Shown here piece after piece: positions 7,545 through 49,232 of a stretch of DNA of 64,000 nt. A program made the translations under genes and the position numbers. Position 1 is the first letter of the stretch; each line of letters opens with the position of its first letter. Under the pieces are notes generated by a model. That model saw only the letters and a list, made by a program, of their open reading frames with translations, made no database searches and had not been told where the DNA came from. Source of the stretch: an uncultured Rickettsiales bacterium (GTDB lineage Bacteria > Pseudomonadota > Alphaproteobacteria > Rickettsiales > JABDBP01); the NCBI GenBank assembly GCA_964450945.1, contig CAYVHI010000003.1, positions 2,191 to 66,190 of the forward strand, read 5' to 3'.

Positions 7545-9065
7545 ATGCCAAAACCGGTAGTATTATGTATTCTTGATGGCTGGGGCCACAGTGATGATCC
7601 CAAGGATAATGCAATTTTAAAGGCAAAAACCCCGAATTTTGAGCGTTTCCTTAAAGAAAGCCCGCATTCCCTGCTTGGAACCTCTGGCCTTGATGTTGGC
7701 CTGCCGGAAGGGCAGATGGGAAATTCCGAGGTGGGGCATATGACCATCGGCTCCGGCAGGGTGATAATGCAGGAATTGCCGAAAATCGACCAGGCGGTTA
7801 AAACCGGGACACTGGCAAAAGAAAAGGCGATAGAAAAATTCATTCAAAAACTAAAATCCACAAAGGGAGCATGCCATCTTCTAGGCCTTGTCTCTGATGG
7901 CGGTGTGCATGCGCATATAAACCACATAATCGCACTGGCAAAAATTATCGCAGGGCAGGGAGTGCCGGTAAAAATACATGCCATGACTGATGGAAGGGAT
8001 ACCGCACCGAACAGCGCACCCGATTTCTTAAGGACACTGGAAAAAGAAATCGCCGGTAACAAACTGATACAAATCGCAACAGTGATGGGCCGCTACTATG
8101 TGATGGACAGGGATAAAAGATGGGAAAGAATTGGCCTGGCATATGATGCAATTATCTCCGCCAAAGGAAAACCAGCTGGAAATGCACAGGAAGCGGTGAA
8201 GAACAGCTACAATGATAGCAAGACAGATGAATTCCTAATTCCCGCTGTGATAAAAGGATATGAAGGCGCTAAAGACGGTGATGGAATATTGATGGCAAAT
8301 TTCCGCGCTGACCGTGCGCGGCAAATAACAGAAAGCCTGCTTGATAAGGGGTTCAAGAGTTTTGCCCGTAAGGAGATAAATTTCTCCGCCGGGCTTGGCA
8401 TGGTTGAGTATTCAGAAAAACACAATGATTTCATGGATACGATTTTCCGGGTTGAAAAATTGGAAAAAATATTGCCGGAAATAATCGCTGATGCAGGGTT
8501 AAAGCAGCTTCGTATAGCCGAGACCGAGAAATATGCGCATGTTACCTTCTTTTTCAGCGGTGGCCGCGAAGCAGAGTTCAAGGGTGAAGAAAGGATACTG
8601 ATACCCTCCCCGAAAGTTGCCACCTATGATATGCAGCCGGAAATGTCGGCTAAAGAGGTGACGGCAAAATTATTAGATGCTATAACGGGCGATAAGTTTG
8701 ATTTTATTGTGGTAAATTTTGCCAATACCGATATGGTAGGCCATACAGGTATTATAGGGGCGGCAGTAAAGGCAGTGGAAGCAGTGGACGAAAGTTTAGG
8801 AAAAATTGCTGAAGCGGTAAAAAATAAAGGCGGCATCATGCTGATAACCGCTGATCATGGCAATGCAGAGCTAATGGTTGATCCTGAAACCGGTGTTGCA
8901 CATACCCAGCATACGCTTAACCCAGTGCCTTGTGTACTTGTGGGCCTTGATAAGAAAACAAAACTTAAAAACGGCAGGCTTTCTGATATAGCACCAACGC
9001 TGCTTGAAATAATGAAGCTGCCAAAACCAAAAGAAATGAACGGAAATTCCCTTATAATCAATTAG
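7545..9065 (+). CDS. gpmI: 2,3-bisphosphoglycerate-independent phosphoglycerate mutase
   Basis: 'ILDGWG', 'GQMGNSEVGH..IG.GR', 'ITADHGN', 506 aa. Confidence 0.95.
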   Translation: MPKPVVLCILDGWGHSDDPKDNAILKAKTPNFERFLKESPHSLLGTSGLDVGLPEGQMGNSEVGHMTIGSGRVIMQELPKIDQAVKTGTLAKEKAIEKFIQKLKSTKGACHLLGLVSDGGVHAHINHIIALAKIIAGQGVPVKIHAMTDGRDTAPNSAPDFLRTLEKEIAGNKLIQIATVMGRYYVMDRDKRWERIGLAYDAIISAKGKPAGNAQEAVKNSYNDSKTDEFLIPAVIKGYEGAKDGDGILMANFRADRARQITESLLDKGFKSFARKEINFSAGLGMVEYSEKHNDFMDTIFRVEKLEKILPEIIADAGLKQLRIAETEKYAHVTFFFSGGREAEFKGEERILIPSPKVATYDMQPEMSAKEVTAKLLDAITGDKFDFIVVNFANTDMVGHTGIIGAAVKAVEAVDESLGKIAEAVKNKGGIMLITADHGNAELMVDPETGVAHTQHTLNPVPCVLVGLDKKTKLKNGRLSDIAPTLLEIMKLPKPKEMNGNSLIIN

Positions 9066-35374: not shown

Positions 35375-37378
35375 ATGAATAGACGAAATAAACCACAAAA
35401 ACTCAGAATTACCTCAGATTTCCAGCCGGCTGGCGACCAGCCGACCGCTATTGCTGCGCTTGTTGGGGGGCTAAAGAAGAAAGAGAAGGACCAGGTTTTA
35501 CTGGGGGTTACAGGTTCAGGGAAGACCTTCACCATGGCGCATATAATAGAAAAAACCCAGCGTCCGGCGCTTATTTTAGCACCAAATAAAACGCTTGCCG
35601 CCCAGCTTTATGGGGAGATGAAAAGCTTCTTCCCGGAGAATGCGGTGGAATATTTTGTTTCATATTATGATTATTACCAGCCGGAAGCCTATATCCCCAA
35701 AAGCGATACATATATCGAGAAAGATTCTTCAATAAATGAGCAGATAGATTTGCTCCGCCACTCTGCAACGCGTGCGCTGCTTGAAAGAAGAGATGTGATT
35801 GTGGTGGCCTCCGTTTCATGTATCTATGGCCTAGGGAGTCCGGAACTTTATTTGCAGATGGTGGTGCCACTAAAGAAAGGTGACAGGATTTCTATTTCAT
35901 CACTGGTTAAAAAACTGGTGGAGATACAATATGAGAGGAATGATATAGATTTTCACCGCGGCACATTCCGTCTGCGCGGTGATAGCCTAGATATTTTTCC
36001 ATCACACTATCAGGACAGGGCGTGGAGACTTTCTTTCTTCGGAGATGATGTTGAAAACATATATGAGTTTGACCCGCTGACTGGAGAAAAAACTGATGAG
36101 ATGGAAGAGATTACAGTGTTTGCCAACAGCCACTATGTAACACCACGCCCAACAATGCTGCAAGCGATAGAGCTTATAAAAGAAGAACTGAAAGACCGGC
36201 TGAAATTTTTTGAGAAGAGTGGAAAACTGTTGGAAGCACAAAGACTGGAACAGCGCACCCAGTTTGATCTGGAGATGATTGTTGAGACAGGTGTTTGCAA
36301 AGGGATTGAAAACTATTCACGCTATCTCTCCGGCAGGAATGCCGGTGAACCACCGCCAACATTATTTGAATATCTGCCGAAAGATGCGTTGCTATTCATA
36401 GATGAAAGTCACGTGGGCGTGCCGCAGATTAACGGCATGTATAACGGCGACAGGGCAAGAAAGACAACACTGGTTGAACATGGTTTCCGCCTGCCTTCAG
36501 CGCTTGATAACCGGCCCTTAAAATTTGAAGAGTGGGAAAAGATGCGCCCACAAACTATTTATGTTTCTGCAACACCTGGCCCATGGGAACTGAAACAGAC
36601 TAGCGGAGAAATCGTTGAGCAATTAATAAGGCCTACCGGGCTTATCGATCCACCATGCGTAGTAAAACCTGCTGAAACGCAAGTGGATGATTTGCTTGCT
36701 GAATGTAATGAGGTGGTGAAGAAAGGTGGGCGCGTGCTGGTTACCACACTTACAAAACGCATGGCTGAAGATTTAACCCAGTATATGCAGGAAGCCGGGC
36801 TAAAGGTTGCCTATATGCACTCTGACATTGAAACATTGGAGCGCATAGAAATAATTCAAAATTTAAGGAAGGGTGAGTTTGATATACTGGTTGGGATAAA
36901 CCTGCTCCGTGAAGGGCTGGATATTCCTGAATGTATGCTGATGGCGATTTTAGATGCTGACAAAGAAGGTTTCTTACGCTCTGAAACTTCACTTATCCAA
37001 ACTATAGGAAGAGCTGCAAGGAACGTGGACAGTAAAGTGATACTCTATGCAGATAAAATCACCGGTTCAATGCAGCGTGCGATGGCAGAAACCGACCGAA
37101 GGAGAAAATTGCAGCAGGAATATAATGAAAAGTACGGCATTACGCCTGAGAGTATAAAAAAGAAAATTTCCGAAGTTCTTGATAGTGTTTATGAACAAGA
37201 CCATGTGACTGTGAAAGTTGATGATGAGATAAAACATCTTGATGAAAAGGCTTTAAAGAAACATCTGGATAAGCTGCATAAAGAAATGCTGAAATTTGCT
37301 GCTGACCTTGAATTCGAAAAAGCTGCAAAACTGCGTGATGAAATAAAGAAACTAGAACAGATGAAGCTGGCTGTCTAA
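35375..37378 (+). CDS. uvrB: Excinuclease ABC subunit B
   Basis: 'GDQP.AI..L', '[10 protein letters not shown]', '[10 protein letters not shown]', 'DESH', and a C-terminal UVR motif 'LEFE.AA.LRD.I'. Confidence 0.97.
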
Positions 37379-38274
37379 CGGTGGAATGTATTTTTACCGC
37401 CGCCTGGGCCACCGCCACCAGGATTGCCACCACCTGGGTTGCCAGTGTTTCTGCCATCATAGATAGTGGCAAAATCATCCCCAACTTGGGCAAATTCAGG
37501 AATAAGCCTTGCCCTTATGGCATGATCAAAATTTGAAAAGCTGGTAAAATATTTCATAGGATTCTTAAGTTCTTCTACAACCATTGAAGTGAGTGCGGCA
37601 CGAAGTGCAGGAGAAAGAGAGTTTATATCTGCTTCTAAAACACTTGGATCAACGCGGTCCATCATATATTTTTTAAGAACGGCGCCTAAAAGATTCTGCC
37701 CTATGGAAATTTCACCTACCGCTTTTTCAGACCTATCAAGGTAAGCATCCACACCAACAGTATCTATGCAGGTTTTATGAGTGGAGAGGAATGGTATTGT
37801 CTCGCCAATCATGATTCTCCTCATCATTACAGGGAGTTTATCGCTTTGCCCTGCCGCCCGGCTTCTTTCAGCTATCTCACTATCAACAACAATGGAATAT
37901 GCGGCTCTTTTAGTGCTTGAATCAAGATCAACTAAATTAAGGCCAAAACTGTATCTGTGGGTTCCAGCAGGTAGACCAAGATACCTTGGGTCATCAGGAA
38001 TTCCGTTCTCAAAAAGTTTTGGCTGGATATAGAGCAGCAGGGGGTCGCGGTCATGGTATATTTCTTTCAGCAGGGCTCCTGTTGCTGCCATACCTGAGGG
38101 TGATGGAGGGAATAATGCTATCAGCGCATTAAAAACTCCATCGATAAATTGAACTGCCTCAGCAGAAGTCCTGGCTTTAGGGGCATTAAGATATTCCGGC
38201 CTTTTCAATACACTGAAAATACCATTCATTATCCCTGCTATAATCTGTTTTTCTATATGTGCATCATGTGGCAT
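37375..38274 (-). CDS. Orphan protein, paralog A (299 aa), Gly-rich C-terminus
   Basis: Shares 'APK/V...A...DG/N.F' and '[12 protein letters not shown]' blocks with the next gene. The C-terminus is '[16 protein letters not shown]'. Confidence 0.6.
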
Positions 38275-38329: not shown

Positions 38330-39184
38330 TTAATCGCGCATTATATCATCAATGGCTGGGCCGGGCTTGTTAATATAGCTTTTAGCAAAATCCTTTGTGA
38401 GATTCCTAAAATCATTAGTAAGATGTGCTCCATCTTCGCCGCGGTGCATTAGGTTTGCTGCCATCTGCATTGGAAGCAGCTTTAATAGTAAAAGAACCTT
38501 TGGCAGTTCTTTTCCTAACTGTCCCTTAAGTTCTTTTGCTTCCTGCTGGATAATTTCTGTTGGAACGAGATCAATTAAAACCTTATCTGTAATTGCTGCT
38601 ATCATTTCATGGCCGGCCATTATCTCACCTACCGCTTTCTCGGATCTGTTTTCCATATAATCCATGGGTATAGATTGCATGCAAGTTGCCTTTAACCCGG
38701 CATGGATAAGGATTTCGTGAAAACTGATCAGCCTTAGGATTACCGGTGTAAGATCACTCTTTGAACCATCATGATCTTCCAAACCTTTGGAAATTTCAGT
38801 ATCAATTACCATCCCCATGTTGCTGGCTGGTGGAAATGTAGAATTACTTCCATAGTAAAAAAATGCCGTAGAGCCTTTTGATGAACCAAACTTACTGCCA
38901 AGCGCCATCACTCTTGGTGATGTTACGCCTGATTCATAAAGGCCTGCCTCATATAGGGTATGTTTGCGGTCAAAATAAAGTTGGTGGAGGAATTTTTTTA
39001 CATCAGGAGGGTAAAAGCCGCTCATATGAGTGAAAAGATTATCAAGCATACCTGCCGCCTGAACAGAAGATACTGGCGCCTTTATATACTCACTTGCATC
39101 CCCAAGCCTTTTTACAAAAAACTTTATAGCCTCGCCAACTATAAGTTTTTCCTGATAACCATCATTTTTTCTTTCAATTGTCAT
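38330..39184 (-). CDS. Orphan protein, paralog B (284 aa from the internal ATG)
   Basis: Start set at 'MTIERKNDGYQEK', which aligns with the paralog A N-terminus. Shared block '[15 protein letters not shown]'. Confidence 0.6.
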   Translation of the reverse strand: MTIERKNDGYQEKLIVGEAIKFFVKRLGDASEYIKAPVSSVQAAGMLDNLFTHMSGFYPPDVKKFLHQLYFDRKHTLYEAGLYESGVTSPRVMALGSKFGSSKGSTAFFYYGSNSTFPPASNMGMVIDTEISKGLEDHDGSKSDLTPVILRLISFHEILIHAGLKATCMQSIPMDYMENRSEKAVGEIMAGHEMIAAITDKVLIDLVPTEIIQQEAKELKGQLGKELPKVLLLLKLLPMQMAANLMHRGEDGAHLTNDFRNLTKDFAKSYINKPGPAIDDIMRD

Positions 39185-39208
39185 ATTAGGTAATAATAAA
39201 ATATTTAA

Positions 39209-39230
39209 GTTAAAAAACGGTAAATAAACT
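39209..39230 (-). promoter_or_regulatory. Shared 22-nt upstream motif, copy 2
   Basis: Identical to 38297-38318. It lies 25-46 nt upstream of the paralog B ATG and 9 nt upstream of the divergent 39239 ATG. Confidence 0.5.
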
Positions 39231-39238
39231 ACACTGGC

Positions 39239-39703
39239 ATGAAAATTGCTTCTTATTCCAGCATGATAGGAAGCGTTCAAAATAACCTGTATGCACTGGC
39301 ATCGAAAAGCGGTGTTCAGTTTGCTAACAAAGAATATGAAGATGGCAGCAATTTCTTCGGAAAAGACGGTCTTACAATTGGCGATGCCATAGATGCAATA
39401 AACCCGCTTAACAACCTGCCGGTTGTTTCAAGTTTTTTCGGTAATGATGAATCCCCCGCTTCTAAAATTGCCGGCAGTGCTCTTTATGGTGGACCGCTTG
39501 GCGTTGTTGCCTCGTTATTTAATTCATTTGTTGAAGGTGAAACAGGAAAAACTTTTGCAGATCATATAATTGCACTATTTGACAACAAGCCTGATGCTGA
39601 AGAAGCGGCCAGCAAATATGCCAAAGTGCAAAATTTCAATGAAGAAGTGAGCCAGGTTAAGGCAGAAGTACCAAAGTTTAATGTATTAGGTATTTCAGTA
39701 TAA
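39239..39703 (+). CDS. Hypothetical protein (154 aa)
   Basis: ORF only. Divergent from paralog B. No signal peptide or motif recognised. Confidence 0.4.
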   Translation: MKIASYSSMIGSVQNNLYALASKSGVQFANKEYEDGSNFFGKDGLTIGDAIDAINPLNNLPVVSSFFGNDESPASKIAGSALYGGPLGVVASLFNSFVEGETGKTFADHIIALFDNKPDAEEAASKYAKVQNFNEEVSQVKAEVPKFNVLGISV

Positions 39704-40315
39704 TTATTGAGGCCCCATCATGCATGGAAGAGGAGGGCCTTTCCCATCACCTTTCTTCCACTTACCATCACATTTCTTGCCTTCGAGATATTTATTGAAG
39801 ACTTTTACTGCACGTTCAGCATCCTGAGGATCCTGCAGGGCAGGGTTGGTGATTTGTGATTGTTCGCTGGCATGCTGAACTATATTAGCAGCAACAGAGC
39901 AGCCAAAGGTTTTGTGATTAAGGTTATATGGGTTAAAATGATTATCAACGTAGCGGCTGTCACAATCACGCGCAACTACACGCTCATAAACCAGAACAAC
40001 GTTGTTAGCACCAATCTTAGAAACCATTTTAAATGGAACGCCAAATTGGTTGAGGACTGATTTTACTTCATTGCAGGTATAGCTGTTATCAGTGCAGGTA
40101 AGTTCCGCCCTTGTTGGCTGATCACGGTTTATCCAGCCAGAAACATCACCAATAACAGAAGCGTTGCCGAGACCGAAAGATACGCGCTCAGCTGAAGCAT
40201 CAATAAGGTTGTTAGGATTGCCACGGGTAACATAAGCTTCTTTCTTAAGACGCTCACCACATGCGGAAACTAAAAGAGCAATAACAAGTGCAGATATGAT
40301 TGTAAGTTTTTTCAT
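39704..40315 (-). CDS. cpaD: CpaD-like pilus assembly lipoprotein
   Basis: Start set at 'MKKLTIISALVIALLVSAC' (lipobox), 1 nt after the secretin stop. 'GCSVAANIV......I.NPA.L..P.DA.RA..V...Y..G' resembles CpaD. Confidence 0.6.
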   Translation of the reverse strand: MKKLTIISALVIALLVSACGERLKKEAYVTRGNPNNLIDASAERVSFGLGNASVIGDVSGWINRDQPTRAELTCTDNSYTCNEVKSVLNQFGVPFKMVSKIGANNVVLVYERVVARDCDSRYVDNHFNPYNLNHKTFGCSVAANIVQHASEQSQITNPALQDPQDAERAVKVFNKYLEGKKCDGKWKKGDGKGPPLPCMMGPQ

Positions 40316-40316
40316 G

Positions 40317-41642
40317 TTAATCCACCATATATCCAAAGGTTCCTTCAATTGCAGATTCGCCACCAGGAAGCTGGGACTGTATGCCCCTTCTTCCAGACAT
40401 AGCACCCAGTGAGCCGAGGAAAATATTTTCCAGGTTGCTAGGTGTGCGGTATTCATCAGTAGGCATCTTGATATCCTGCGATTTAACAGGATCAACAAGG
40501 TAAGGAGTTACAGAAATAACCAGCTCTGTCTCATCACGCTCAATGCTTGAGCCACGGAGAATCGAGCCAAGAATAGGGATATTGGAAAGCGGGGTTGCAC
40601 CGCCGGATTCAACATTTATGTTATCTTTCATGAGTCCTGCAATCATGAAGCTTTCGCCTGGTGCAAGCTCAACCGTTGTTTTTGCCTTGCGCGATGAAAT
40701 GCCCGGAACAGAAAAACCAGCAGTTACAACAGCGCCTTTTTCAGAAAGCTGAGAAACTTCAGATTCAACAGTTAGGCGGATGCGGTTCTTGGAAAGAACA
40801 ATTGGAGTGAACTCTAGGCCAACACCATAATTCTTATAATTAACCGCAAGACCTTCACGTGATTGCATAGGAACAGGAATCTGGCCGCCGGAAAGGAAAT
40901 TTGCGGTTTCACCGGAGATAGCTGTCAAATTTGGTTCGGCAAGAACTTTGAACAGGCCATCTTTTTCAAGGGAAGCAAGACCAACAGCGCCATATTTTTT
41001 CAGTGCAGTGCGCTGAACTTCGCCAACACGGACACGCAGCATTACCTGCTGTGAATTCCTTATCTGCATCATGTTTAGGATTTCTTCACGGCTGCCGTGG
41101 CCACGCACATGTTGTTCGACAATATGCATTATACGGCCAGCAATTTCAGCATCAGAAACCATGCCGCTTACAGCAAGGCTTTTGTTTCCGGTTCTTTTTA
41201 TCCCGACAGTTTCGTTAGGGAAATATGTTTTTATTGTATTTTCTATATCAGAATATTCACCACGGTAACCGGTTTGTGTAACAATTTTCTTTTTCTTTTG
41301 TTTAGGTTTTTTCTTAACAGGTGCTTTTGGTGGTTCAGGGGCAAAAGCAGGTTCAGGAGGTGCTACAGCGATTGCAACTGGGGCAGGCGGAGGTGAGGGG
41401 GGAGCTTCAGCCGCCATTGGCATAACCGGGGCAACAACAGGAGCAGGAGGCATTTCTGAGCCAATAGGAGCAACAGGCATTGCCATCATTGGTGTGGGTG
41501 GAGCAGCAGGTGCTGCCATAGGCGCCACCTCATTATTTGTGTTAACACCTAAATTATCAGAGGTTTCCTGAGCGCGGATATTCGCAACTGAAAAAATGAA
41601 AAAGGCCGCACTTATTAAAATGTATTTTCCAACAACCTTCAT
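40317..41642 (-). CDS. cpaC: Tad/Flp-type secretin (CpaC/RcpA family) with ~100-aa Met/Pro/Ala-rich N-terminal insert
   Basis: Signal peptide and a BON-like segment. 'LAEPNLTAISGETANFLSGGQIPVP', 'YKNYGVGLEFTP', 'VPGISSRKAKTTVELAPGESFMIAGL', 'IPILG.ILR', 'ELVISVTPYLV'. Confidence 0.85.
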   Translation of the reverse strand: MKVVGKYILISAAFFIFSVANIRAQETSDNLGVNTNNEVAPMAAPAAPPTPMMAMPVAPIGSEMPPAPVVAPVMPMAAEAPPSPPPAPVAIAVAPPEPAFAPEPPKAPVKKKPKQKKKKIVTQTGYRGEYSDIENTIKTYFPNETVGIKRTGNKSLAVSGMVSDAEIAGRIMHIVEQHVRGHGSREEILNMMQIRNSQQVMLRVRVGEVQRTALKKYGAVGLASLEKDGLFKVLAEPNLTAISGETANFLSGGQIPVPMQSREGLAVNYKNYGVGLEFTPIVLSKNRIRLTVESEVSQLSEKGAVVTAGFSVPGISSRKAKTTVELAPGESFMIAGLMKDNINVESGGATPLSNIPILGSILRGSSIERDETELVISVTPYLVDPVKSQDIKMPTDEYRTPSNLENIFLGSLGAMSGRRGIQSQLPGGESAIEGTFGYMVD

Positions 41643-41890
41643 GGCACCAAACCCTTAAAAAATAGATTAATTTTTAAAAACAAATCACTGCTGCACTTAA
41701 TAAGCAGACCCTAATCGTATATTGCTGCGGCGACAAATAGTCAAGCGATATTCCCAGCCCGCTATTCATAATCATGCTTATTATACAGATAGTTGCACAA
41801 CCAACAAAAGCCCCCGTCTTTTTGGGGTAATATATTGAGATATAGGTATTTTATCTTTAATAAAAGGTTCACAAAAAATGCTGGTGGTTT

Positions 41891-41899
41891 TGCTATAAT
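41891..41899 (+). promoter_or_regulatory. Candidate extended -10 promoter element 'TGcTATAAT'
   Basis: Perfect TGnTATAAT about 118 nt upstream of the 42017 GTG. No good -35 at 17-bp spacing, which extended -10 promoters tolerate. Confidence 0.35.
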
Positions 41900-42016
41900 T
41901 TACGCTTCAAGGTATTCCAGACGCGGACAAACAACTATAACTTTCCGTGTCGGGAGTTATGGTTCCGCTGAAAAGGGACCTTGGAATCCTCGAGCCGTTA
42001 GAAAGGACGGTGGCAG

Positions 42017-42310
42017 GTGGCGAAGCTTTCGGATTTTGTCTCAATCGAGACGCAGCCGGATGGGAGCGTGAAACTCGTGCTCACCAAGAAGGCGGTGGAA
42101 GGCGACTACCAAGTGTACGGCGGGGGGGACATCACCCTCGAGCCGTGGGAACTTGACGCGAAGTCTCCTGAAATCAAGCTGGAGGCCCAAGAGTTCGAGA
42201 TCGATGTCGTGAACGACATCGGCACCTTGGTTGCCGAGGGTAAGATCAAGCTTACCCACAAGCTCGAGATCACGGAAGATCCCGAGTTCGAAGACGACGA
42301 AGACGAATAA
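42017..42310 (+). CDS. 97-aa hyper-acidic protein of unknown family, encoded with foreign (GC3-rich) codon usage
   Basis: GTG start with 'AAAGGA' ending 9 nt upstream. 26 D/E versus 9 K, no R or C. The tail is 'EDPEFEDDEDE'. All 7 Ile are ATC and 8/9 Lys are AAG. Confidence 0.6.
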   Translation: MAKLSDFVSIETQPDGSVKLVLTKKAVEGDYQVYGGGDITLEPWELDAKSPEIKLEAQEFEIDVVNDIGTLVAEGKIKLTHKLEITEDPEFEDDEDE

Positions 42311-42365
42311 GAGAATTAAAAAAAACCAAATTTATTGAAACTATTTATTTAAATTATCCGGTTTT

Positions 42366-42394
42366 CCCCCTCATGATGAGGGGGTTTTTGTTTT
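42366..42394 (+). terminator. Rho-independent terminator
   Basis: 'ccccctca-tga-tgaggggg' is an 8-bp GC-rich stem (42366-42384), followed by 'tttttgtttt'. Confidence 0.75.
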
Positions 42395-42447
42395 AAAGAC
42401 CTATAATACTAGTTGCGAAAAAAGCTGATTTTGCTTATTTTGCCCGC

Positions 42448-44004
42448 ATGACTTTTGTTGATGAAAAGATACTTATCCTCGATTTTGGTTCCCAGCTTAC
42501 CCAGCTTATCGCCCGAAGGGTGCGTGAAAATGGCGTATATTCAGAAATTAGGCCCTATAATATAAGTGATAAAGAAATAAAGGCGTTTGGCGCGAAAGCT
42601 ATAATACTTTCCGGCGGTCCAGCCAGCGTTTCCGGCCACAAAGCACCAACAGTTAATAAAAAAATATTTGAAATGGGTGTTCCCATACTTGGCATATGCT
42701 ACGGGCAACAATTGATGTGTGATCTGCTCGGCGGTAAAGTGGAAAAAGCCAAGAAAAGGGAATTCGGCCGGGCATTCGTTGATGTGAATTCTGAATCTGA
42801 ATTATTTAAAGGTGTTTGGAAAAAAGGTGAGAAGCACCAGGTGTGGATGAGCCATGGTGATAGTGTTGTGACGTTGCCAAAAGGTTTTAAAGCGGTGGCG
42901 GGAACTGAAGGTGCACCATTTGCAGTGGTTGCTGATGAAAACAGGAGATTCTATGGAATACAGTTCCATCCTGAAGTTGTTCATACACTTGAAGGAAAAG
43001 AACTCTTAAAGAATTTTACCCACCGGATTGCTGGCTGCAAAGGCAACTGGAACATGGCAGCATTCCTTAAAGAAGAAATTAAAAAGATAAAGCAGCAAGT
43101 GGGAAATAAAAAAGTTATCTGCGCGGTTTCCGGTGGGGTGGATTCATCTGTGGTGGCAGCACTTATACATAAAGCCATTGGCAACCAACTTCACTGCGTT
43201 TTTGTTGATACCGGCCTGCTGCGCCTTGATGAAGCAAAACGCGTGAAAAAGATGTTCGCTGAGAACTTTCATATAAAAATAAAACAAATAGATGCTAGTA
43301 AATTATTCCTCGGCCGCCTAAAAGGGGTGACTGACCCGGAGAAGAAGCGAAAAATTATCGGCAAAACGTTCATTGATGTTTTTGAGAAAGAAGCAAAGGC
43401 CATAAAAGGAGTGGAATTTTTAGCGCAAGGCACGCTTTACCCTGATGTTATTGAATCAGTTTCATCATTCGGCGGCCCATCTGTTACCATAAAATCGCAC
43501 CACAATGTTGGCGGCCTGCCAGCCCGCATGAAACTTAAACTTATTGAGCCGGTGCGTGAATTATTCAAAGATGAAGTGAGAAGGCTGGGATTAGAACTTG
43601 GTATGCATTTAGATATGGTGAAACGCCATCCATTCCCGGGGCCGGGGCTTGCCATCCGCATGCCGGGTGAAATAACAAAGGAAAAACTGGAAATCCTGCG
43701 CCAGGCAGATGCAATTTTCATCGAAGAGTTGCATAAAGAGGGGCTTTATGACCAGATATGGCAGGCATATGCAGCGTTATTACCGGTAAAAACCGTTGGT
43801 GTTATGGGTGACAGCCGCTCTTATGAATATATATGCATGCTCCGCGCCGTTACCTCAACCGATGGCATGACTGCAGATTTCTTTGATTTTCAACATAGTT
43901 TCCTAAGCCGCGTTAGTAACCGGATAGTCGGTGAAGTTAGAGGAATAAACAGGGTGGTTTATGATGTAACATCAAAACCGCCAGCAACAATCGAGCTGGA
44001 ATAA
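42448..44004 (+). CDS. guaA: GMP synthase (glutamine-hydrolysing)
   Basis: 'ILDFGSQ.TQLIARR.RE', 'GICYG.Q', 'SGGVDSSV', and C-terminal 'KPP.TIE.E'. Confidence 0.97.
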
Positions 44005-44311: not shown

Positions 44312-46273
44312 GTGAATTTGACGGGTGACAACAAGGTAAAGCCAGGCGCGGAAGGTACAACGCCTGTTCAACCCGGTATGGTGAAGCCAGCTGGTGCTCC
44401 TGCCGCTGCGGCACCTGTTTCTCCGCCATCTGCTGCTGCAACTAAACCAGCAACTACTGCGCCAAAAGCTACACCTGGAATGCCTGCTTCTCCACAAGCG
44501 GCCGTTCCGCCAAAAGCACCAACTACAACAGCTCCTGCACCAGTGCAGAACCGGCCGCCGCAGGCGCCAGCAGATCCGACTAAAAAAATAACCAGCCATA
44601 TAGGCGAAGTTATGGTGGAGAAAGGTCTTATCTCAAAAGACCAGCTGGAAATTGCACTTAAGGAGCAAAAAGAGCAGGAAGGCACCAAACGCATGATGCT
44701 TGGAAGCATACTTGTAGAAATGGGTTTCATTACGGAAAGTGCGCTTGGCGAAGTTCTGGCTGAATCTACCGGTATTGAAAAATTCGATATGAAATCTGCT
44801 GTGCTTGATCCGAAGCTGGTCAAGCAAATCCCAAAGCATGTGGCAGAAAGATATAAGATGATACCTATAACGATTATCGGGGAAAGCATACAGATTGCCA
44901 TATCAGACGTTTATAACGTGCTGGCGATTGATCAGGCGCACAAGTATTTCCCAAAAAACTTCAAGATCGTTCCCGTTTATGCCGCTGAAGCGGAAATCTC
45001 GGAACTGATAGACCATTACTATGATTATGAAATGTCGGTTGACGGCATCTTAAAAGAAATCGAAACCGGAATAGCGGAAAAGAAAGAACTAAGCGGTGAA
45101 GCAGAAGGATATATCAACCCGACTGTACGCCTTGTGGATGCTCTTCTGGTTGATGCGATAAAACAAGGAGCTTCCGATATCCACCTTGAGCCGGAAGGAG
45201 CTTTCCTGCGCTTACGCTACCGTATTGACGGGCAGATGATGCAGATAAGAAGTTTTCATAATGATTACTGGCCGGCGATAGCCGTTCGTATAAAAATCAT
45301 GTCAGGCATGAACATCGCCGAGGTAAGGAACCCGCAGGATGGACGCATTGCCTATAATGTGCTTGGCAAAGAAGTGGATTTCCGTGTTTCCACCCAGCCG
45401 ACAGTTTACGGCGAAAATATCGTTATGCGTATCCTGGATAAGAAGAAATCACTGGTGACGCTTGATAAGCTTGGGTTCTCTGAACATAACGAAAAAGTAC
45501 TAAAGAAACTTCTGAAAAGACCAGAAGGAATTATAATAGTGACTGGTCCTACCGGTAGCGGTAAGACTACAACGCTTTATTCAATCCTCAGCTATATAAA
45601 TTCGGTTGATGTTAATATCATGACACTGGAAGATCCGGTGGAATACCAGTTGCCGATGATACGCCAATCAAGCGTGCGTGAAGGCGGGATGAATTTTTCT
45701 ACAGGTATGCGCTCACTTATGAGGCAGGACCCTGATATCATATTCGTGGGTGAGGTGCGTGATGAAGACACGGCAAATATGGCACTCCGAGCTGCCATGA
45801 CCGGCCACCAGGTGTTTACTACACTGCACACCAACGATGCGATAGGCGCTATACCACGCCTGGTGGATATTGGTGTGCAGCCGAGCCTTCTTGCCGGCTC
45901 ACTCATCTGCTGCATGGCGCAAAGGCTTGCAAGAAAATTATGCTTAAGTTGCAGGAAAGAAAAAATTGCAACACCTGAAGAATGTAAAATTCTAGGTGTT
46001 GACCCTAAATCTCCACCGAAGATATATGAGCGTGTAGGATGTGATAAATGTAATGGCGGGTATAAGGGCCGAGTCGCAGTTGCAGAGATACTGCCGGTTG
46101 ACAGGGAAATGGATGAATTAATAGCCAATCGCGCAACCCGCAAGGTTATACTTAACCATGCAATTTCAAACGGGTTTGTTACTATGGTGCAAGATGGCAT
46201 CAATAAAGTTTTATTAGGGCAGACTGACCTGGAAGAACTTATCAATACCGTTGATATGACCGAACGCCTATAG
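44312..46273 (+). CDS. pilB: Type IV pilus assembly ATPase (PilB/MshE-like) with ~95-aa Pro/Ala-rich N-terminal extension
   Basis: Walker A 'GPTGSGKTTTLYS', 'EDPVE', 'GEVRD', 'TGH.VF.TLHTND', and a tetra-Cys 'CLSC...CDKC'. The GTG start is uncertain; in-frame ATG alternatives lie downstream. Confidence 0.9.
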   Translation: MNLTGDNKVKPGAEGTTPVQPGMVKPAGAPAAAAPVSPPSAAATKPATTAPKATPGMPASPQAAVPPKAPTTTAPAPVQNRPPQAPADPTKKITSHIGEVMVEKGLISKDQLEIALKEQKEQEGTKRMMLGSILVEMGFITESALGEVLAESTGIEKFDMKSAVLDPKLVKQIPKHVAERYKMIPITIIGESIQIAISDVYNVLAIDQAHKYFPKNFKIVPVYAAEAEISELIDHYYDYEMSVDGILKEIETGIAEKKELSGEAEGYINPTVRLVDALLVDAIKQGASDIHLEPEGAFLRLRYRIDGQMMQIRSFHNDYWPAIAVRIKIMSGMNIAEVRNPQDGRIAYNVLGKEVDFRVSTQPTVYGENIVMRILDKKKSLVTLDKLGFSEHNEKVLKKLLKRPEGIIIVTGPTGSGKTTTLYSILSYINSVDVNIMTLEDPVEYQLPMIRQSSVREGGMNFSTGMRSLMRQDPDIIFVGEVRDEDTANMALRAAMTGHQVFTTLHTNDAIGAIPRLVDIGVQPSLLAGSLICCMAQRLARKLCLSCRKEKIATPEECKILGVDPKSPPKIYERVGCDKCNGGYKGRVAVAEILPVDREMDELIANRATRKVILNHAISNGFVTMVQDGINKVLLGQTDLEELINTVDMTERL

Positions 46274-47645: not shown

Positions 47646-49232
47646 ATGTTTGGTAGCAGAAGTAAAAAATTTGTTCTTACAATAGGTGATGACGGAGTCA
47701 TCCTTACCTTTCTTGATGGCGCAAAACTTAAGGAGCGCTTGTTTTGCCAAGCACCTTCATCTGAAGACGCTGAAAAATTAAAAAAACTTCTGGAAAGGAA
47801 CCGTTCGGTCCCTATCTATATTTACATAGATCTGCTTGACCAGTCATTTTCCCAGCAGACGATTCCGCCGATAAGCGCCCTAAGAGTCAATGCACTTGTA
47901 AAAAGGAAGTTGCAAAGAGATTTCAACCCCAATGATATAAAAGCTGCCTTGAAACTTGACCGGTTAAAGACCGGTAGAAAGGACTGGATATATCTGTTTC
48001 TTTCAATCCCTTTTATTCCTCCGCTTTCAGAGTGGATTGAGATGATGCTCGAGATGCCCAATAAATTCGCGGGCATATATTCACTTCCCTTAGAAGTTGA
48101 GGCGCTGGTTAGAGATATAGACAAACTGCGCAAAGGTTCGGTGCCTGCCCAGTGGAAGATGCTGATAGCCCATAATAAGGTAGGGGGGATAAGGCAGGTT
48201 GTTTACCGTAACAATACTTTTATAATAAGCCGCCTTAACCAACCAGTTGGTGCTGCAGAAGCTGGGGTTATAGCGGGCAATATCGAGCAGGAGGCGGCAA
48301 ACACAATAGAGTTTATACGCCGTGTGGGATATGAAGAGAAGGATGGCCTGGATCTTTATGTTATTTGTGAGAAAGATATAAAATCACAACTTCAGTCATC
48401 ACGTATTACTGCTGTAAAAGATATAACTGTATTCACTCCGCATGAACTTGCAACCAAGCTTGGTATGAAAAATGTTACCAAGGAAGAAGATAAATACTCT
48501 GATATTCTTCTTGCCGCCCATTTCGGGAGTAAAAAAAGGAAGCATCTTCGTATTTCTACAAAAAATACCGAACAGCTTGATAAGCTGGATTTACTTGATA
48601 ATGCAGCAGTAGCTGGTGGTAGCGTTCTGGTTTTACTGATGCTTTTGCTGGGTGGGTATTATGTTGTTTCTCTCTACTCCATAATAAATGAGTTTAATCA
48701 GGCCAAGAAGTTAAGGGGCGAGAATGAAATTAAACTGGAAGAGATAAATAAGGAAAAACAGAAATTCTCTGTTGATATAAACGCGGTTATTGATACCGTC
48801 TATTATTATAATGTTTTCAGTAAAAATGAAGCATATCCGCTTAACATGCTGAGCCAGTTTTCTGAAGTTAAAGGCAAGGGAAATTCAGTAAAGACCGTGC
48901 GTGTAAAAATGGATGAGATGGAGAAATCTACTCCTCCGAATGCCTTTGGCAAAGATTTGGGTGTGATGCAGCCACGCGGTATAAACATAAACTACAGCAT
49001 GGAGCTGAAAACAAGTTCCAATACTATTGAACAACTGCTTGAATACACGGAAAACTTCACCAAAAAGATCCAGGAATCTTTCAAGGGCTATGATATAAAA
49101 TTTTCTAATTTGCCAAGCCGTGAAATTATTAACACAAATATAGGTGGAGGCGCATTACCAAATGGACCTGATCTTAGGAATGTAACCATACAGGTTATTA
49201 TAGAGACCGCCAAAAGTAAGGAGAAACAGTAA
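47646..49232 (+). CDS. Bitopic assembly protein, possibly PilM-PilN fusion / GspL-like
   Basis: About 330-aa cytoplasmic domain beginning 'FVLTIGDDGVILT', a single TM 'VAGGSVLVLLMLLLGGYYVV', then ~170 aa periplasmic. Sits right after pilC. Homology not verified. Confidence 0.45.
   Translation: MFGSRSKKFVLTIGDDGVILTFLDGAKLKERLFCQAPSSEDAEKLKKLLERNRSVPIYIYIDLLDQSFSQQTIPPISALRVNALVKRKLQRDFNPNDIKAALKLDRLKTGRKDWIYLFLSIPFIPPLSEWIEMMLEMPNKFAGIYSLPLEVEALVRDIDKLRKGSVPAQWKMLIAHNKVGGIRQVVYRNNTFIISRLNQPVGAAEAGVIAGNIEQEAANTIEFIRRVGYEEKDGLDLYVICEKDIKSQLQSSRITAVKDITVFTPHELATKLGMKNVTKEEDKYSDILLAAHFGSKKRKHLRISTKNTEQLDKLDLLDNAAVAGGSVLVLLMLLLGGYYVVSLYSIINEFNQAKKLRGENEIKLEEINKEKQKFSVDINAVIDTVYYYNVFSKNEAYPLNMLSQFSEVKGKGNSVKTVRVKMDEMEKSTPPNAFGKDLGVMQPRGININYSMELKTSSNTIEQLLEYTENFTKKIQESFKGYDIKFSNLPSREIINTNIGGGALPNGPDLRNVTIQVIIETAKSKEKQ

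Follow-up and report, generated by a model that had tools for sequence, protein, structure and literature searches.

In the window, that is the whole 64,000-nt stretch of DNA that was analysed, a CpaC-like secretin gene on the reverse strand (40317..41642; PF00263 Secretin on an identical Logan contig) and the GMP synthase gene guaA on the forward strand (42448..44004; identified from Pfam domains and homologs) flank an open reading frame (ORF) of 97 codons. This ORF runs on the forward strand from a GTG to a TAA codon (42017..42310) and stands out by its GC periodicity and outlying codon usage. A CpaD-like lipoprotein gene (39704-40306; PF09476) lies downstream of the secretin gene, and the genes neighbouring the ORF code for UvrB, PNPOx, PTPS, CpaD, the secretin, GuaA and T2SSE/F. 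The sequence of the locus is identical in six out of six assemblies: five independent Logan assemblies obtained from different runs and the NCBI record span the secretin gene, the ORF and guaA, including both junctions, at 100% identity. The sharp compositional boundaries of the locus would also be expected of an assembly chimera or a contamination, in which foreign GC-rich reads are joined to the contig, but the agreement of these assemblies effectively refutes this explanation.

The ORF is distinguished from the rest of the window by its codon usage. Its GC3 is 0.763 vs 0.30-0.49 across all 55 long ORFs in the window, with 0.35 for the secretin gene and 0.41 for guaA. In 173 native chunks of 97 codons, GC3 averages 0.408 (sd 0.061, maximum 0.598) and the synonymous-codon log-likelihood per codon has a minimum of -1.272, beneath which the ORF falls (-1.311). 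The original prediction had claimed an alien composition from codon and base counts made by hand. Both sets of counts were reproduced: all seven Ile codons are ATC and eight of the nine Lys codons are AAG (native shares 0.21 and 0.32, respectively), and G+C amounts to 35/60 in 42061-42120, 12/60 in 42301-42360 and 22/60 in 42541-42600. The claim itself is borne out by GC3 and synonymous likelihood, for which the ORF lies beyond all 173 native chunks and not within the normal spread of the genome. GC at codon positions 1, 2 and 3 of the ORF is 0.65, 0.28 and 0.76 (chi-square p=1e-11), with p=1e-11 given for both of its halves. The favoured codons are G-ending (AAG, GAG, GTG, GCG, ACG) as well as C-ending, which points to the mutation bias of a donor rather than to translational selection. 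The anomaly resides in GC3 and codon choice and not in bulk GC, since the 300 nt at the ORF (0.577) are only the third highest in the window and two genic regions reach 0.583.

The GC content of the donor was estimated with the codon-position GC regressions of Muto and Osawa and of Lawrence and Ochman, which reportedly relate codon-position GC to genome GC. The estimates are 41-43% for the native genes (real value 42.7%) and 62-64% for the ORF. The GC-rich part is restricted to a core of ~400 bp (~41915-42310) that reaches ~100 nt upstream of the start codon and ends in a sharp fall of GC at the stop codon, from 0.50 to 0.17. Because the promoter region (GC 0.34) and the 3'UTR (GC 0.18) are AT-rich and host-like, the cassette was not delivered unaltered from one GC-rich donor. 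Its mosaic nature likewise speaks against a one-step transfer from such a donor.

Expression signals surround the ORF, as had been proposed in the description of a self-contained unit. An extended -10 element, TGcTATAAT (TGCTATAAT; 41891-41899, forward strand), is located 118 nt before the GTG codon. A two-hexamer promoter scan did not call it, no well-spaced -35 element was found for it (TTCACA lies 20 nt upstream), and the motif TGNTATAAT alone is non-significant, with 8 occurrences in the window vs 3.9±2.0 expected. We infer from its sequence that the element functions as a promoter, with transcription probably starting near 41906. The resulting 5' leader of ~111 nt (41906..42016, forward strand; GC 0.50) is predicted to fold into a long-range helix and a hairpin that carries the Shine-Dalgarno (SD) sequence in its loop (MFE -40.1 kcal/mol, z=-2.28), a stability equalled by 7 of 200 shuffles. 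The SD sequence, AAAGGA (42002-42007, forward strand), is placed 9 nt before the GTG start. The leader matches no Rfam family and holds no significant remnant coding signal. It was also considered as the frameshifted remnant of an upstream repeat of the ORF (ILEPLE vs TLEPWE) and this idea was rejected: the identity is limited to 11 nt, is matched by 15 of 1000 shuffles and is non-significant at the protein level as well. Downstream of the stop codon, the AT-rich 3'UTR (42311..42365, forward strand, delimited on the GC profile) opens with a run of eight A. An intrinsic terminator follows 55 nt 3' of the stop codon, with the structure CCCCCTCA-TGA-TGAGGGGG followed by TTTTTGTTTT (42366..42394, forward strand) and an 8-bp stem (42366-42384) containing 6 GC pairs. 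The -10 element, the SD sequence and the hairpin with its T-run are thus present with the spacings originally reported, and together with the leader and the ORF they make up a complete promoter-like to terminator unit. Among the perfect-stem hairpins with a T tail in the 64 kb, the terminator ranks first in strength at -13.9 kcal/mol, followed by one of -11.3.

The rank of the terminator is new here, and so is the presence in the mRNA of structure beyond that of synonymous permutations. Compared to synonymous-codon permutations, the ORF mRNA is more structured than expected (z=-3.05), while 26 native genes give -0.35±0.88; codon-order shuffles also yield an excess (z=-2.62). An artefact of complementary codons (GAN vs NTC) was considered and discarded, the excess persisting at z=-2.62 and -3.05 in these two controls and the 26 native genes being normal. 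Fold z-scores are -3.5 for the whole transcript (~490 nt), -3.18 for the coding sequence (CDS) and -2.78 for the antisense strand, so that the signal is not strand-specific, the antisense strand being nearly as stable. Two perfect hairpins lie inside the CDS on the forward strand. The one at 42202..42221 (CGATGTCGTGAACGACATCG, encoding IDVVNDIG) has 8-9 bp and matched synonymous choices, GAT with ATC and GTC with GAC. In the 7-bp hairpin at 42238..42257 (GGGTAAG-ATCAAG-CTTACCC), the ORF's sole GGT codon for Gly is base-paired to ACC, and AAG to CTT. Out of 3000 synonymous permutations, 87 contained at least two such hairpins, and so did 26 out of 3000 codon shuffles, which makes the excess moderately significant only (p about 0.01-0.03). 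Searches for known RNAs returned no Rfam match at gathering score over the whole window, nothing credible locally at E<=1, and no tRNA or tmRNA with ARAGORN.

The gene order lipoprotein-secretin on the reverse strand and guaA on the forward strand is kept in the relatives L006/L007 and L008. There, the start codons of the divergent secretin/guaA pair are ~98-100 bp apart, compared to 805 bp in the window. In L009, L011 and L021 the spacer upstream of guaA is short as well (80-300 bp). Even the nearest relatives are distant, with GuaA 72-75% identical and the secretin of the window 56% identical to its L008 ortholog over 320 aa. The insertion point is anchored by a conserved 17-nt spacer motif, AATAGTCAAGCGATATT (41736..41752, forward strand), of which 16 out of 17 positions are found in L006, L007 and L008 (7964-7980), with 0.03 matches expected by chance per window. 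Between the end of this motif and the ATG of guaA there are 20 nt in L006/L007/L008 vs 695 nt in the window (41753..42447, forward strand), hence ~675 bp net of lineage-specific DNA, consisting of an AT-rich left part, the GC-rich core, the AT-rich 3'UTR and the terminator. The insertion site is thereby mapped to within ~20 nt, and both flanking genes are intact. Neither the loci of the relatives nor the rest of the window gave a blastn or tblastn trace of the extra DNA or of the ORF, and scanning species genomes with the secretin did not turn up a relative. The comparison of this spacer between related genomes, suggested together with the original prediction, thus opposes spacers of ~100 bp lacking the ORF to the 805 bp observed here, and no relative carries the ORF in synteny as an old core gene would be. 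Composition argues for a gain in the lineage of the window rather than a loss in the relatives, these being distant and the phylogeny not dense.

Marks of a mobile element were looked for at the locus. There is no target-site duplication, and no integrase, transposase or phage gene nearby. A 13-nt inverted repeat, AACAAAAGCCCCC, brackets the cassette, its left arm (41803..41815) being complementary to 42380-42392 at 12 of 13 positions; no direct repeat flanks it, and it may only reflect two G5/T-run hairpins. The left arm belongs to a weak CCCC/GGGG hairpin. A TATAAT hexamer is located 40 nt upstream of guaA (42402..42407, forward strand) and is proposed as a candidate replacement promoter for this gene, as the insert parts guaA from the ancestral shared spacer.

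The product of the ORF is a protein of 97 aa and 10.8 kDa with a net charge of -17. As described initially, it contains 26 D/E against 9 K, no Arg and no Cys, and ends with EDPEFEDDEDE. Its D+E fraction is 0.268, against 0.122 on average and 0.174 at most for native proteins, and an equally acidic composition occurs in only 29 out of 14066 native 97-aa windows. The absence of Arg together with nine Lys and seven Ile is unusual for a protein of a GC-rich genome, an observation that goes against a GC-rich donor. No signal peptide and no significant internal repeat were found. A charge-hydropathy plot assigns the core to its folded side and the tail to its disordered side. Two single-sequence AF2 runs gave consistent all-beta models of low confidence (pLDDT 59.6 and 63.8); fold searches with them returned no PDB or viral hit at E<0.1, and their matches are generic beta-sandwiches. 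The family had not been recognised initially, and homology searches have now revealed no credible homolog among ~15 billion proteins, the product matching only itself in 5.8 billion clusters. No credible match was obtained in Pfam, PHROGs, NCBIfam, PADLOC or PDB, nor any credible homolog in phage, plasmid, viral and metagenome searches at protein and DNA level. The sole phage match is a low-complexity one of 41 nt between the acidic-tail codons and Vibrio phages (E=5e-3). The product is best explained as a cytoplasmic protein outside known families, with ~86 residues predicted to form a beta-rich core, followed by a poly-acidic tail predicted to be disordered.

A resemblance to WD40 repeats nevertheless calls for comment. 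An exhaustive search with the product returned 20 matches, nearly all of them WD40 proteins, with E down to 1e-10. The WD40 repeat (PF00400) has the pattern D-x-T-L-x-x-W-[DE]-L ... L-E-G-H, which residues ~26-60 of the product resemble in register: EGDYQVYGGGDITLEPWEL aligns with DGRYVVSGSSDRTLRIWDL, then LEAQ with LEGH. The ORF could accordingly stem from a few blades of a WD40 propeller gene that belonged to a GC-rich bacterium or to a eukaryotic host, its product being a secreted eukaryote-like effector or a self-assembling mini-propeller, and the score of 57 bits was reached by none of 1000 shuffled queries. However, each repeat by itself scores 7-17 bits, at independent E-values between 3e2 and 1e6, and the totals are inflated because tandem repeats are summed. 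One shuffled query attained 48 bits against only 20 targets, so that 57 bits are not safely beyond chance over millions of WD40 proteins. The Pfam WD40 model does not match even at E<=10, and the product differs from WD40 proteins by having no tandem repeats of ~40 aa, no signal peptide and no propeller-like AF2 model, the models being of low confidence. WD40 homology was rejected on these grounds as an inflation by repeat summing; the resemblance is a lead, not membership, and a WD40-derived effector is highly improbable.

The composition, coding periodicity, anatomy, insertion and orphan status of the ORF are matters of observation, and an acquired, autonomously expressed orphan protein gene probably lies behind them. 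A GC-rich core gene of ~400 bp would have arisen in a genome with a GC content of roughly 60-64% before entering a 43% GC alphaproteobacterium by horizontal transfer, producing a lineage-specific insertion of ~0.67 kb in an otherwise ~100-bp divergent secretin/guaA spacer. The core gene would now be an autonomous transcription unit set in AT-rich host-like DNA, with a -10 element, an SD-exposing leader, a GTG start and a terminator, from which the ORF may be transcribed and translated. Its GC-rich, hairpin-dense mRNA could form an unusually stable message in an AT-rich host, and the product might, like DNA or RNA mimics, act in stoichiometric amounts as an electrostatic decoy that engages a basic nucleic-acid-binding protein. 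This mimic or decoy mechanism, suggested by composition alone, is a tentative possibility.

The same features have to be weighed against other readings. The ORF could be an inert relic, i.e. a foreign GC-rich fragment, perhaps left from the 3' end of a longer gene, whose frame is still open, whose promoter-like, SD-like and terminator signals arose by chance or are those of neighbouring genes, and which makes no functional product. GC-rich codon-biased DNA is open by default, the antisense and shifted frames being open here over 55-72 codons, and the GC-rich zone extending upstream of the start codon, the non-significance of the -10 motif alone, the low AF2 confidence and the lack of homologs and of evidence for selection all agree with a relic. 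However, a natural gene end is retained since GC falls exactly at the stop codon, and an SD and start in proper spacing are accompanied by the strongest terminator of the window and by an extended -10 element lying a plausible distance away. The leader contains neither a significant remnant coding signal nor a repeat of the ORF. A neutral relic would also be expected to have drifted towards the host GC3 of 41%. This explanation is unlikely. Less probable than a relic is the founding by the cassette of a protein family without relatives in which the nucleic-acid properties are functional, either as a new kind of DNA/RNA mimic or anti-defence decoy, produced in large amounts from a stabilised, GC-rich and hairpin-dense mRNA in an AT-rich host, or as a dual-function element in which structured RNA and acidic protein are both active.

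Still less probable is a native gene under unusual selection, an old resident, lost by the sampled relatives, whose hairpins and G/C-ending codons would be maintained by selection on mRNA stability, on structure or on very high expression. The amino acids are those of an AT-rich genome (GC2 0.28, with many Ile, and Lys in the absence of Arg), the regulatory DNA on either side is AT-rich like that of the host, and the mRNA structure beyond synonymous permutations would imply selection on synonymous sites. Against this stand the short spacers at the site in five relatives, the absence of homologs in relatives or elsewhere, and the rest of the 64 kb, in which no other gene comes near the ORF (maximum GC3 0.49). 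Translational selection in an AT-rich bacterium is not known to yield a preference for AAG, GAG and other G-ending codons, and such a preference is what the ORF displays. The RNA itself could be the product, a structured or dual-function RNA of ~490 nt, GC-rich and hairpin-dense, with a secondary ORF. A GC-rich island with its own promoter and terminator in an AT-rich genome is typical of stable RNA genes, and the fold scores of the transcript and CDS, their excess over synonymous permutations and the two perfect hairpins with matched codons fit such a gene, but 3-base periodicity in one frame (p=1e-11) is a coding mark foreign to structured RNAs. With Rfam and ARAGORN empty, the antisense strand nearly as stable and the hairpin excess only moderate, a structured RNA gene was rejected as a candidate, codon periodicity favouring coding, and an RNA product is very unlikely.

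Read as an acquired and autonomously expressed protein gene, the locus is an unusually clean, well-bounded single-gene horizontal acquisition with complete expression signals, found in a deep-branching, uncultured lineage of alphaproteobacteria for which hardly any relatives have been sequenced. Through its excess of mRNA structure and the synonymous codons matched across hairpins, the locus lends itself to a small, tractable test of an influence of RNA stability on codon usage in foreign genes of AT-rich hosts. If the product proves to be a nucleic-acid mimic or electrostatic decoy, a family unrecognisable by sequence would be added to a class of few members, and moron-like cargo could be said to lodge in core chromosomal spacers outside any phage context. 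If the ORF is unexpressed, it is one more orphan ORF.

Several known systems can be compared to the cassette. Phage morons are single coding regions with their own promoter and terminator, of differing composition, that are found in phages between genes adjacent in relatives (PMC4378225). Like them, the cassette is a single coding region with its own promoter-like element and a factor-independent terminator, sits between genes adjacent in relatives, differs in composition from its neighbours and entered without recognisable recombination scars. Own signals, insertion and composition, three of the four traits of this definition, are thus found at the sequence level, and the fourth, residence in a phage or prophage, is not: the cassette lies in a bacterial chromosome amid housekeeping and pilus genes, without phage genes within ±8 kb. 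It is moreover foreign in its core only, with a host-like promoter and 3'UTR, and has no meaningful phage, viral or plasmid similarity. For the 'moron'-style cargo envisaged by the original prediction, the alien composition, self-containment and absence from relatives are supported, no phage or mobile-element context was found, and only the core is GC-rich. In the absence of such a context, 'moron-like' refers to architecture and not to membership.

DNA mimics (Ocr, ArdA, HI1450, DMP12/19, SAUGI, Ugi) are small proteins of about 80-170 aa, as is the product, and many of them show an orphan-like sequence divergence; sequence is acknowledged not to suffice for recognising the family (PMC3902945). 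In Ocr, 34 of 116 residues are acidic and 6 are basic, giving 29% D/E (PMC3439906), to which the 27% D/E of the product (26 acidic and 9 basic in 97) is comparable. Contrary to the mimics, the product is predicted, in low-confidence models, to have a sandwich-like core made up of beta-strands only and a disordered tail, and no restriction, defence or mobile-element genes adjoin the ORF. It matches none of the known mimic or anti-defence families (Ocr, ArdA, Ugi, etc.) in Pfam, PHROGs, NCBIfam, PADLOC or PDB sequences. Since the structure models are of low confidence and match nothing, it is composition that suggests mimicry, whether in the DNA-mimic, anti-restriction or SSB-tail form put forward in the original prediction. 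Atypical composition, absence from relatives and lack of homologs outside the lineage are found here as in acquired ORFans and single-gene islets, with which the cassette shares a restricted taxonomic distribution, a short length and an intergenic location that leaves the flanking genes undisrupted. ORFans are, however, usually AT-richer than their host and weakly expressed, in contrast with this far GC-richer ORF, its strong expression signals and its unusually structured mRNA.

The order of a CpaD-like lipoprotein gene (minus strand), a CpaC-like secretin gene (40317-41642, minus strand) and guaA (42448-44004, plus strand) is shared by the window and by L006/L007 and L008, the loci of the two nearest relatives with long contigs. 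The secretins are orthologous (56% identity over 320 aa), and their start codons lie 98-100 bp from that of guaA in L006/L007/L008 and 805 bp in the window. In the relatives, a 17-nt motif, AATAGTCAAGAGATATT, ends 20 nt upstream of the guaA ATG. The same motif with one mismatch is found at 41736-41752, 695 nt upstream of guaA, where 0.03 matches per window are expected by chance. The window therefore carries approximately 675 bp of extra DNA. Spacers upstream of guaA are also short in three more distant relatives (L009, 300 bp; L011, 170 bp; L021, 80 bp). No match in any relative locus or in the rest of the window was obtained with the cassette (blastn) or with the protein of its 97-aa ORF (42017-42310, plus strand; tblastn).

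The conserved spacer motif, AATAGTCAAG(A/C)GATATT, is located at 7964-7980 in L006/L007/L008, and some 30 nt upstream of it (7933-7950) these relatives have another copy like it, AATTTGTCAGGTAATATT. The motif may bind a regulator or serve the secretin gene and guaA as a common core promoter element. The insertion has parted it from guaA which, being cut off from the ancestral shared spacer, is now probably transcribed from the TATAAT at 42402-42407 or by read-through. A Tad-pilus gene (rcpC or cpaC-like secretin) divergent from an adjoining guaA is also present in L009 (6739-9545), L011 (1828-4551) and L006 (6430-9554), and this adjacency appears to be an unexpectedly conserved gene order across several distantly related alphaproteobacterial MAGs.

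The source lineage itself is very isolated. A search of 5.8 billion protein clusters with GuaA gave best non-self matches of 72-75% identity. Of named genomes, an unclassified 'Proteobacteria bacterium' MAG (72%) and an 'uncultured Rickettsiales' MAG (66%) come nearest, and when species-representative genomes were scanned with the secretin, no relative turned up. At 0.427, the GC content of the window is below the 0.46-0.53 of its nearest relatives' loci, a hint that this lineage has drifted toward AT.

The genes neighboring the cassette encode PTPS, PNPOx, UvrB, three proteins without Pfam match, CpaD, the secretin, GuaA, T2SSE and T2SSF; no integrase, transposase or phage gene is among them. 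Four sizeable ORFs lack a Pfam match (37375-38271 and 38330-39277, minus strand; 39239-39700 and 47646-49229, plus strand). A homolog of the 154-aa ORF at 39239-39700 lies immediately upstream of guaA in L021 (786-1316), so that this ORF is part of a conserved neighborhood.

The original prediction held that the ORF differs sharply from its surroundings in base composition and codon usage, and this was borne out. G+C counts of 35/60 in 42061-42120, 12/60 in 42301-42360 and 22/60 in 42541-42600 were obtained again from the sequence, as were the promoter motif and Shine-Dalgarno positions. Ile is encoded by ATC in all seven cases (0.21 in native genes) and Lys by AAG in eight of nine (0.32). The ORF has GC1/2/3 of 0.65/0.28/0.76 in a window of 42.7% GC, where GC3 of the 55 long ORFs ranges from 0.30 to 0.49. 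Compared with 173 native in-frame chunks of ORF length (GC3 mean 0.408, sd 0.061, maximum 0.598), it lies 5.8 sd away, and its synonymous-codon log-likelihood under native usage (-1.311 per codon) is below the native minimum (-1.272). The bulk GC of the region over 300 nt is 0.577 and two genic regions reach 0.583; the anomaly is therefore one of codon choice. Other local GC spikes (0.53-0.58) at 41300-41600 and 44312-44640 are not foreign DNA but encode Pro/Ala-rich low-complexity stretches that extend the N-termini of the secretin and of the PilB/GspE-like T2SSE ATPase, respectively; the Pro-rich N-terminus is similar in the L008 secretin. The ~400-bp GC-rich block holds two AAGCTT sites and, at 41989, 42137 and 42263, three of the window's five CTCGAG (XhoI) palindromes. 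CTC-GAG and AAG-CTT codon pairs are the probable origin of these sites, which add to the self-complementarity of the block.

The elements predicted for a self-contained unit can all be read in the sequence. An extended -10 motif, TGCTATAAT (41891-41899), lies 118 nt upstream of the GTG at 42017, and a Shine-Dalgarno AAAGGA (42002-42007) 9 nt upstream of the start. As TGNTATAAT occurs eight times in the window (3.9±2.0 expected), the promoter motif alone is no evidence. The fold of the leader (-40.1 kcal/mol, z=-2.3) consists of a long-range helix and a hairpin whose loop presents the Shine-Dalgarno. Downstream, a stem of 8 bp with six GC pairs (42366-42384) followed by TTTTTGTTTT is the strongest of all perfect-stem hairpins with a T-run in the 64 kb (-13.9 vs -11.3 and -8.4 kcal/mol). 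The extra DNA is a mosaic in GC content: 0.34 on the left, promoter region included (41758-41889), 0.50 in the leader (41900-42016), 0.56 in the ORF (42017-42307) and 0.18 in the 3'UTR (42311-42365), which starts with an A8 run and leads to the terminator. GC drops from 0.50 to 0.17 precisely where the stop codon lies. A 13-nt inverted repeat, AACAAAAGCCCCC (41803-41815) and GGGGGTTTTTGTT (42380-42392), 12/13 complementary, lies on either side of the cassette; no direct repeat flanks it, and no target-site duplication was found. It may represent element ends or merely two outward-facing G5/T-run hairpins.

The coding sequence also has a moderately significant excess of mRNA structure. Its fold (-111.8 kcal/mol) is more stable than dinucleotide shuffles (z -3.18, 0/200 as stable or more), codon-order shuffles (z -2.62, 5/300) and synonymous permutations with the protein fixed (z -3.05, 2/300), the last test giving a mean of -0.35 (sd 0.88, minimum -1.89) for 26 native genes. 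An artefact of reverse-complement codons in an acidic/hydrophobic alternation (GAT/ATC, GAC/GTC, GAG/CTC, AAG/CTT) was considered, but the codon-level nulls leave the excess. Two perfect hairpins (42202-42221 and 42238-42257) are built from synonymous codons that match each other, e.g. the sole GGT Gly codon pairs with ACC; at least two such hairpins arose in 87/3000 synonymous permutations and 26/3000 codon shuffles. The antisense strand folds nearly equally (z=-2.78), so the signal is not clearly strand-specific. Message stabilization is proposed provisionally.

The encoded protein contains 26 D/E, 9 K, no Arg and no Cys (net charge -17) and ends with EDPEFEDDEDE. It had been described as of no recognized family, and the searches agree. 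A word-indexed search of 5.8 billion clusters returned itself only, in a cluster of one member; Pfam, PHROGs, NCBIfam, PADLOC and PDB sequences gave no match, nor did phages and plasmids (tblastn) or viral and metagenome contigs (back-translated scans). The sole DNA match of the whole cassette, between acidic-tail codons (42284-42324, GAAGACGACGAAGACGAA...) and hypothetical genes of three ~247-kb Vibrio phages (41 nt, 85%, E=5e-3), is low-complexity and was discounted. AF2 without alignment gave a pLDDT of 59.6 at full length and 63.8 for residues 1-87, with about seven beta strands in both models, for which Foldseek (PDB, BFVD) retrieved generic beta-sandwiches only (E>=0.15). By the charge-hydropathy calculation, residues 1-86 class as folded and the tail as disordered.

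Altogether, the cassette is probably an orphan gene that was acquired by horizontal transfer, is predicted to be expressed autonomously and encodes a hyper-acidic, beta-rich protein. An inert relic is unlikely. It is distinctly unlikely that a native gene has come under odd selection: G-ending codons (AAG, GAG, GTG, GCG, ACG) are favored as well as C-ending ones, which indicates donor mutation bias and not translational selection. Another candidate for a GC-rich island that has a promoter and a terminator and lies in an AT-rich genome is a stable RNA gene. This reading is very unlikely here, as three-base GC periodicity (p=1e-11 overall, highly significant in each half) argues that this frame is coding rather than part of a GC-rich structured RNA; Rfam has no credible local match at E<=1, and no Rfam family at gathering threshold, tRNA or tmRNA (ARAGORN) was found in the 64 kb.

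A WD40-derived effector is highly improbable, although HMMER, run exhaustively against 1.84 billion representatives, yielded 20 matches at E<1e-3. Among the nine scanned, eight are WD40 repeat proteins, the ninth (P0021) having only a weak DUF1153 match, and the WD40 alignments pass strikingly through EGDYQVYGGGDITLEPWEL of the ORF protein against DGRYVVSGSSDRTLRIWDL. However, single-repeat scores are 7-17 bits (independent E-values 3e2 to 1e6), one of 1000 shuffled queries scored 48 bits against those 20 targets only, the Pfam WD40 model gives no match and the protein has no significant internal repeat. The sequence resemblance is a lead only. An assembly chimera is virtually impossible, since five independent Logan assemblies from different runs cover secretin, ORF and guaA at 100% identity to the window.

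The source of the acquired gene was estimated with published regressions of GC by codon position (Muto and Osawa; Lawrence and Ochman), which assign native genes to 41-43% GC (real value 42.7%) and the ORF to a source of 62-64% GC. A simple one-step transfer is disfavored by the AT-rich flanks, the Lys-rich Arg-free protein and the lack of a mobility trace. The gene may have come via an AT-rich vehicle that supplied promoter and terminator, or the ~400-bp core alone may have entered a previously expanded spacer.

Orphan genes of the acquired-ORFan kind are common, and this well-defined cassette with its curious RNA-structure feature falls among acquired ORFan or moron-like islets. Morons are defined as single coding regions that carry a promoter and a terminator of their own, are inserted between genes adjacent in relatives and deviate in composition (PMC4378225). 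By its sequence, the cassette shares all three architectural traits, and the proposal of a 'moron'-style cargo gene holds for an acquired self-contained unit. It does not hold for a strict phage moron, in contrast to which no phage genes lie nearby; the cassette may be said to work like a moron without being classed as one. The protein, with 27% D/E, is comparable in composition to the DNA mimic Ocr, whose 116 residues include 34 acidic and 6 basic ones. The DNA-mimic class is admittedly not recognizable from sequence (PMC3902945). Its decisive features are charge geometry and target binding; on composition, the one trait in support, membership is a possibility, and the product might, doubtfully, act as a decoy or mimic.
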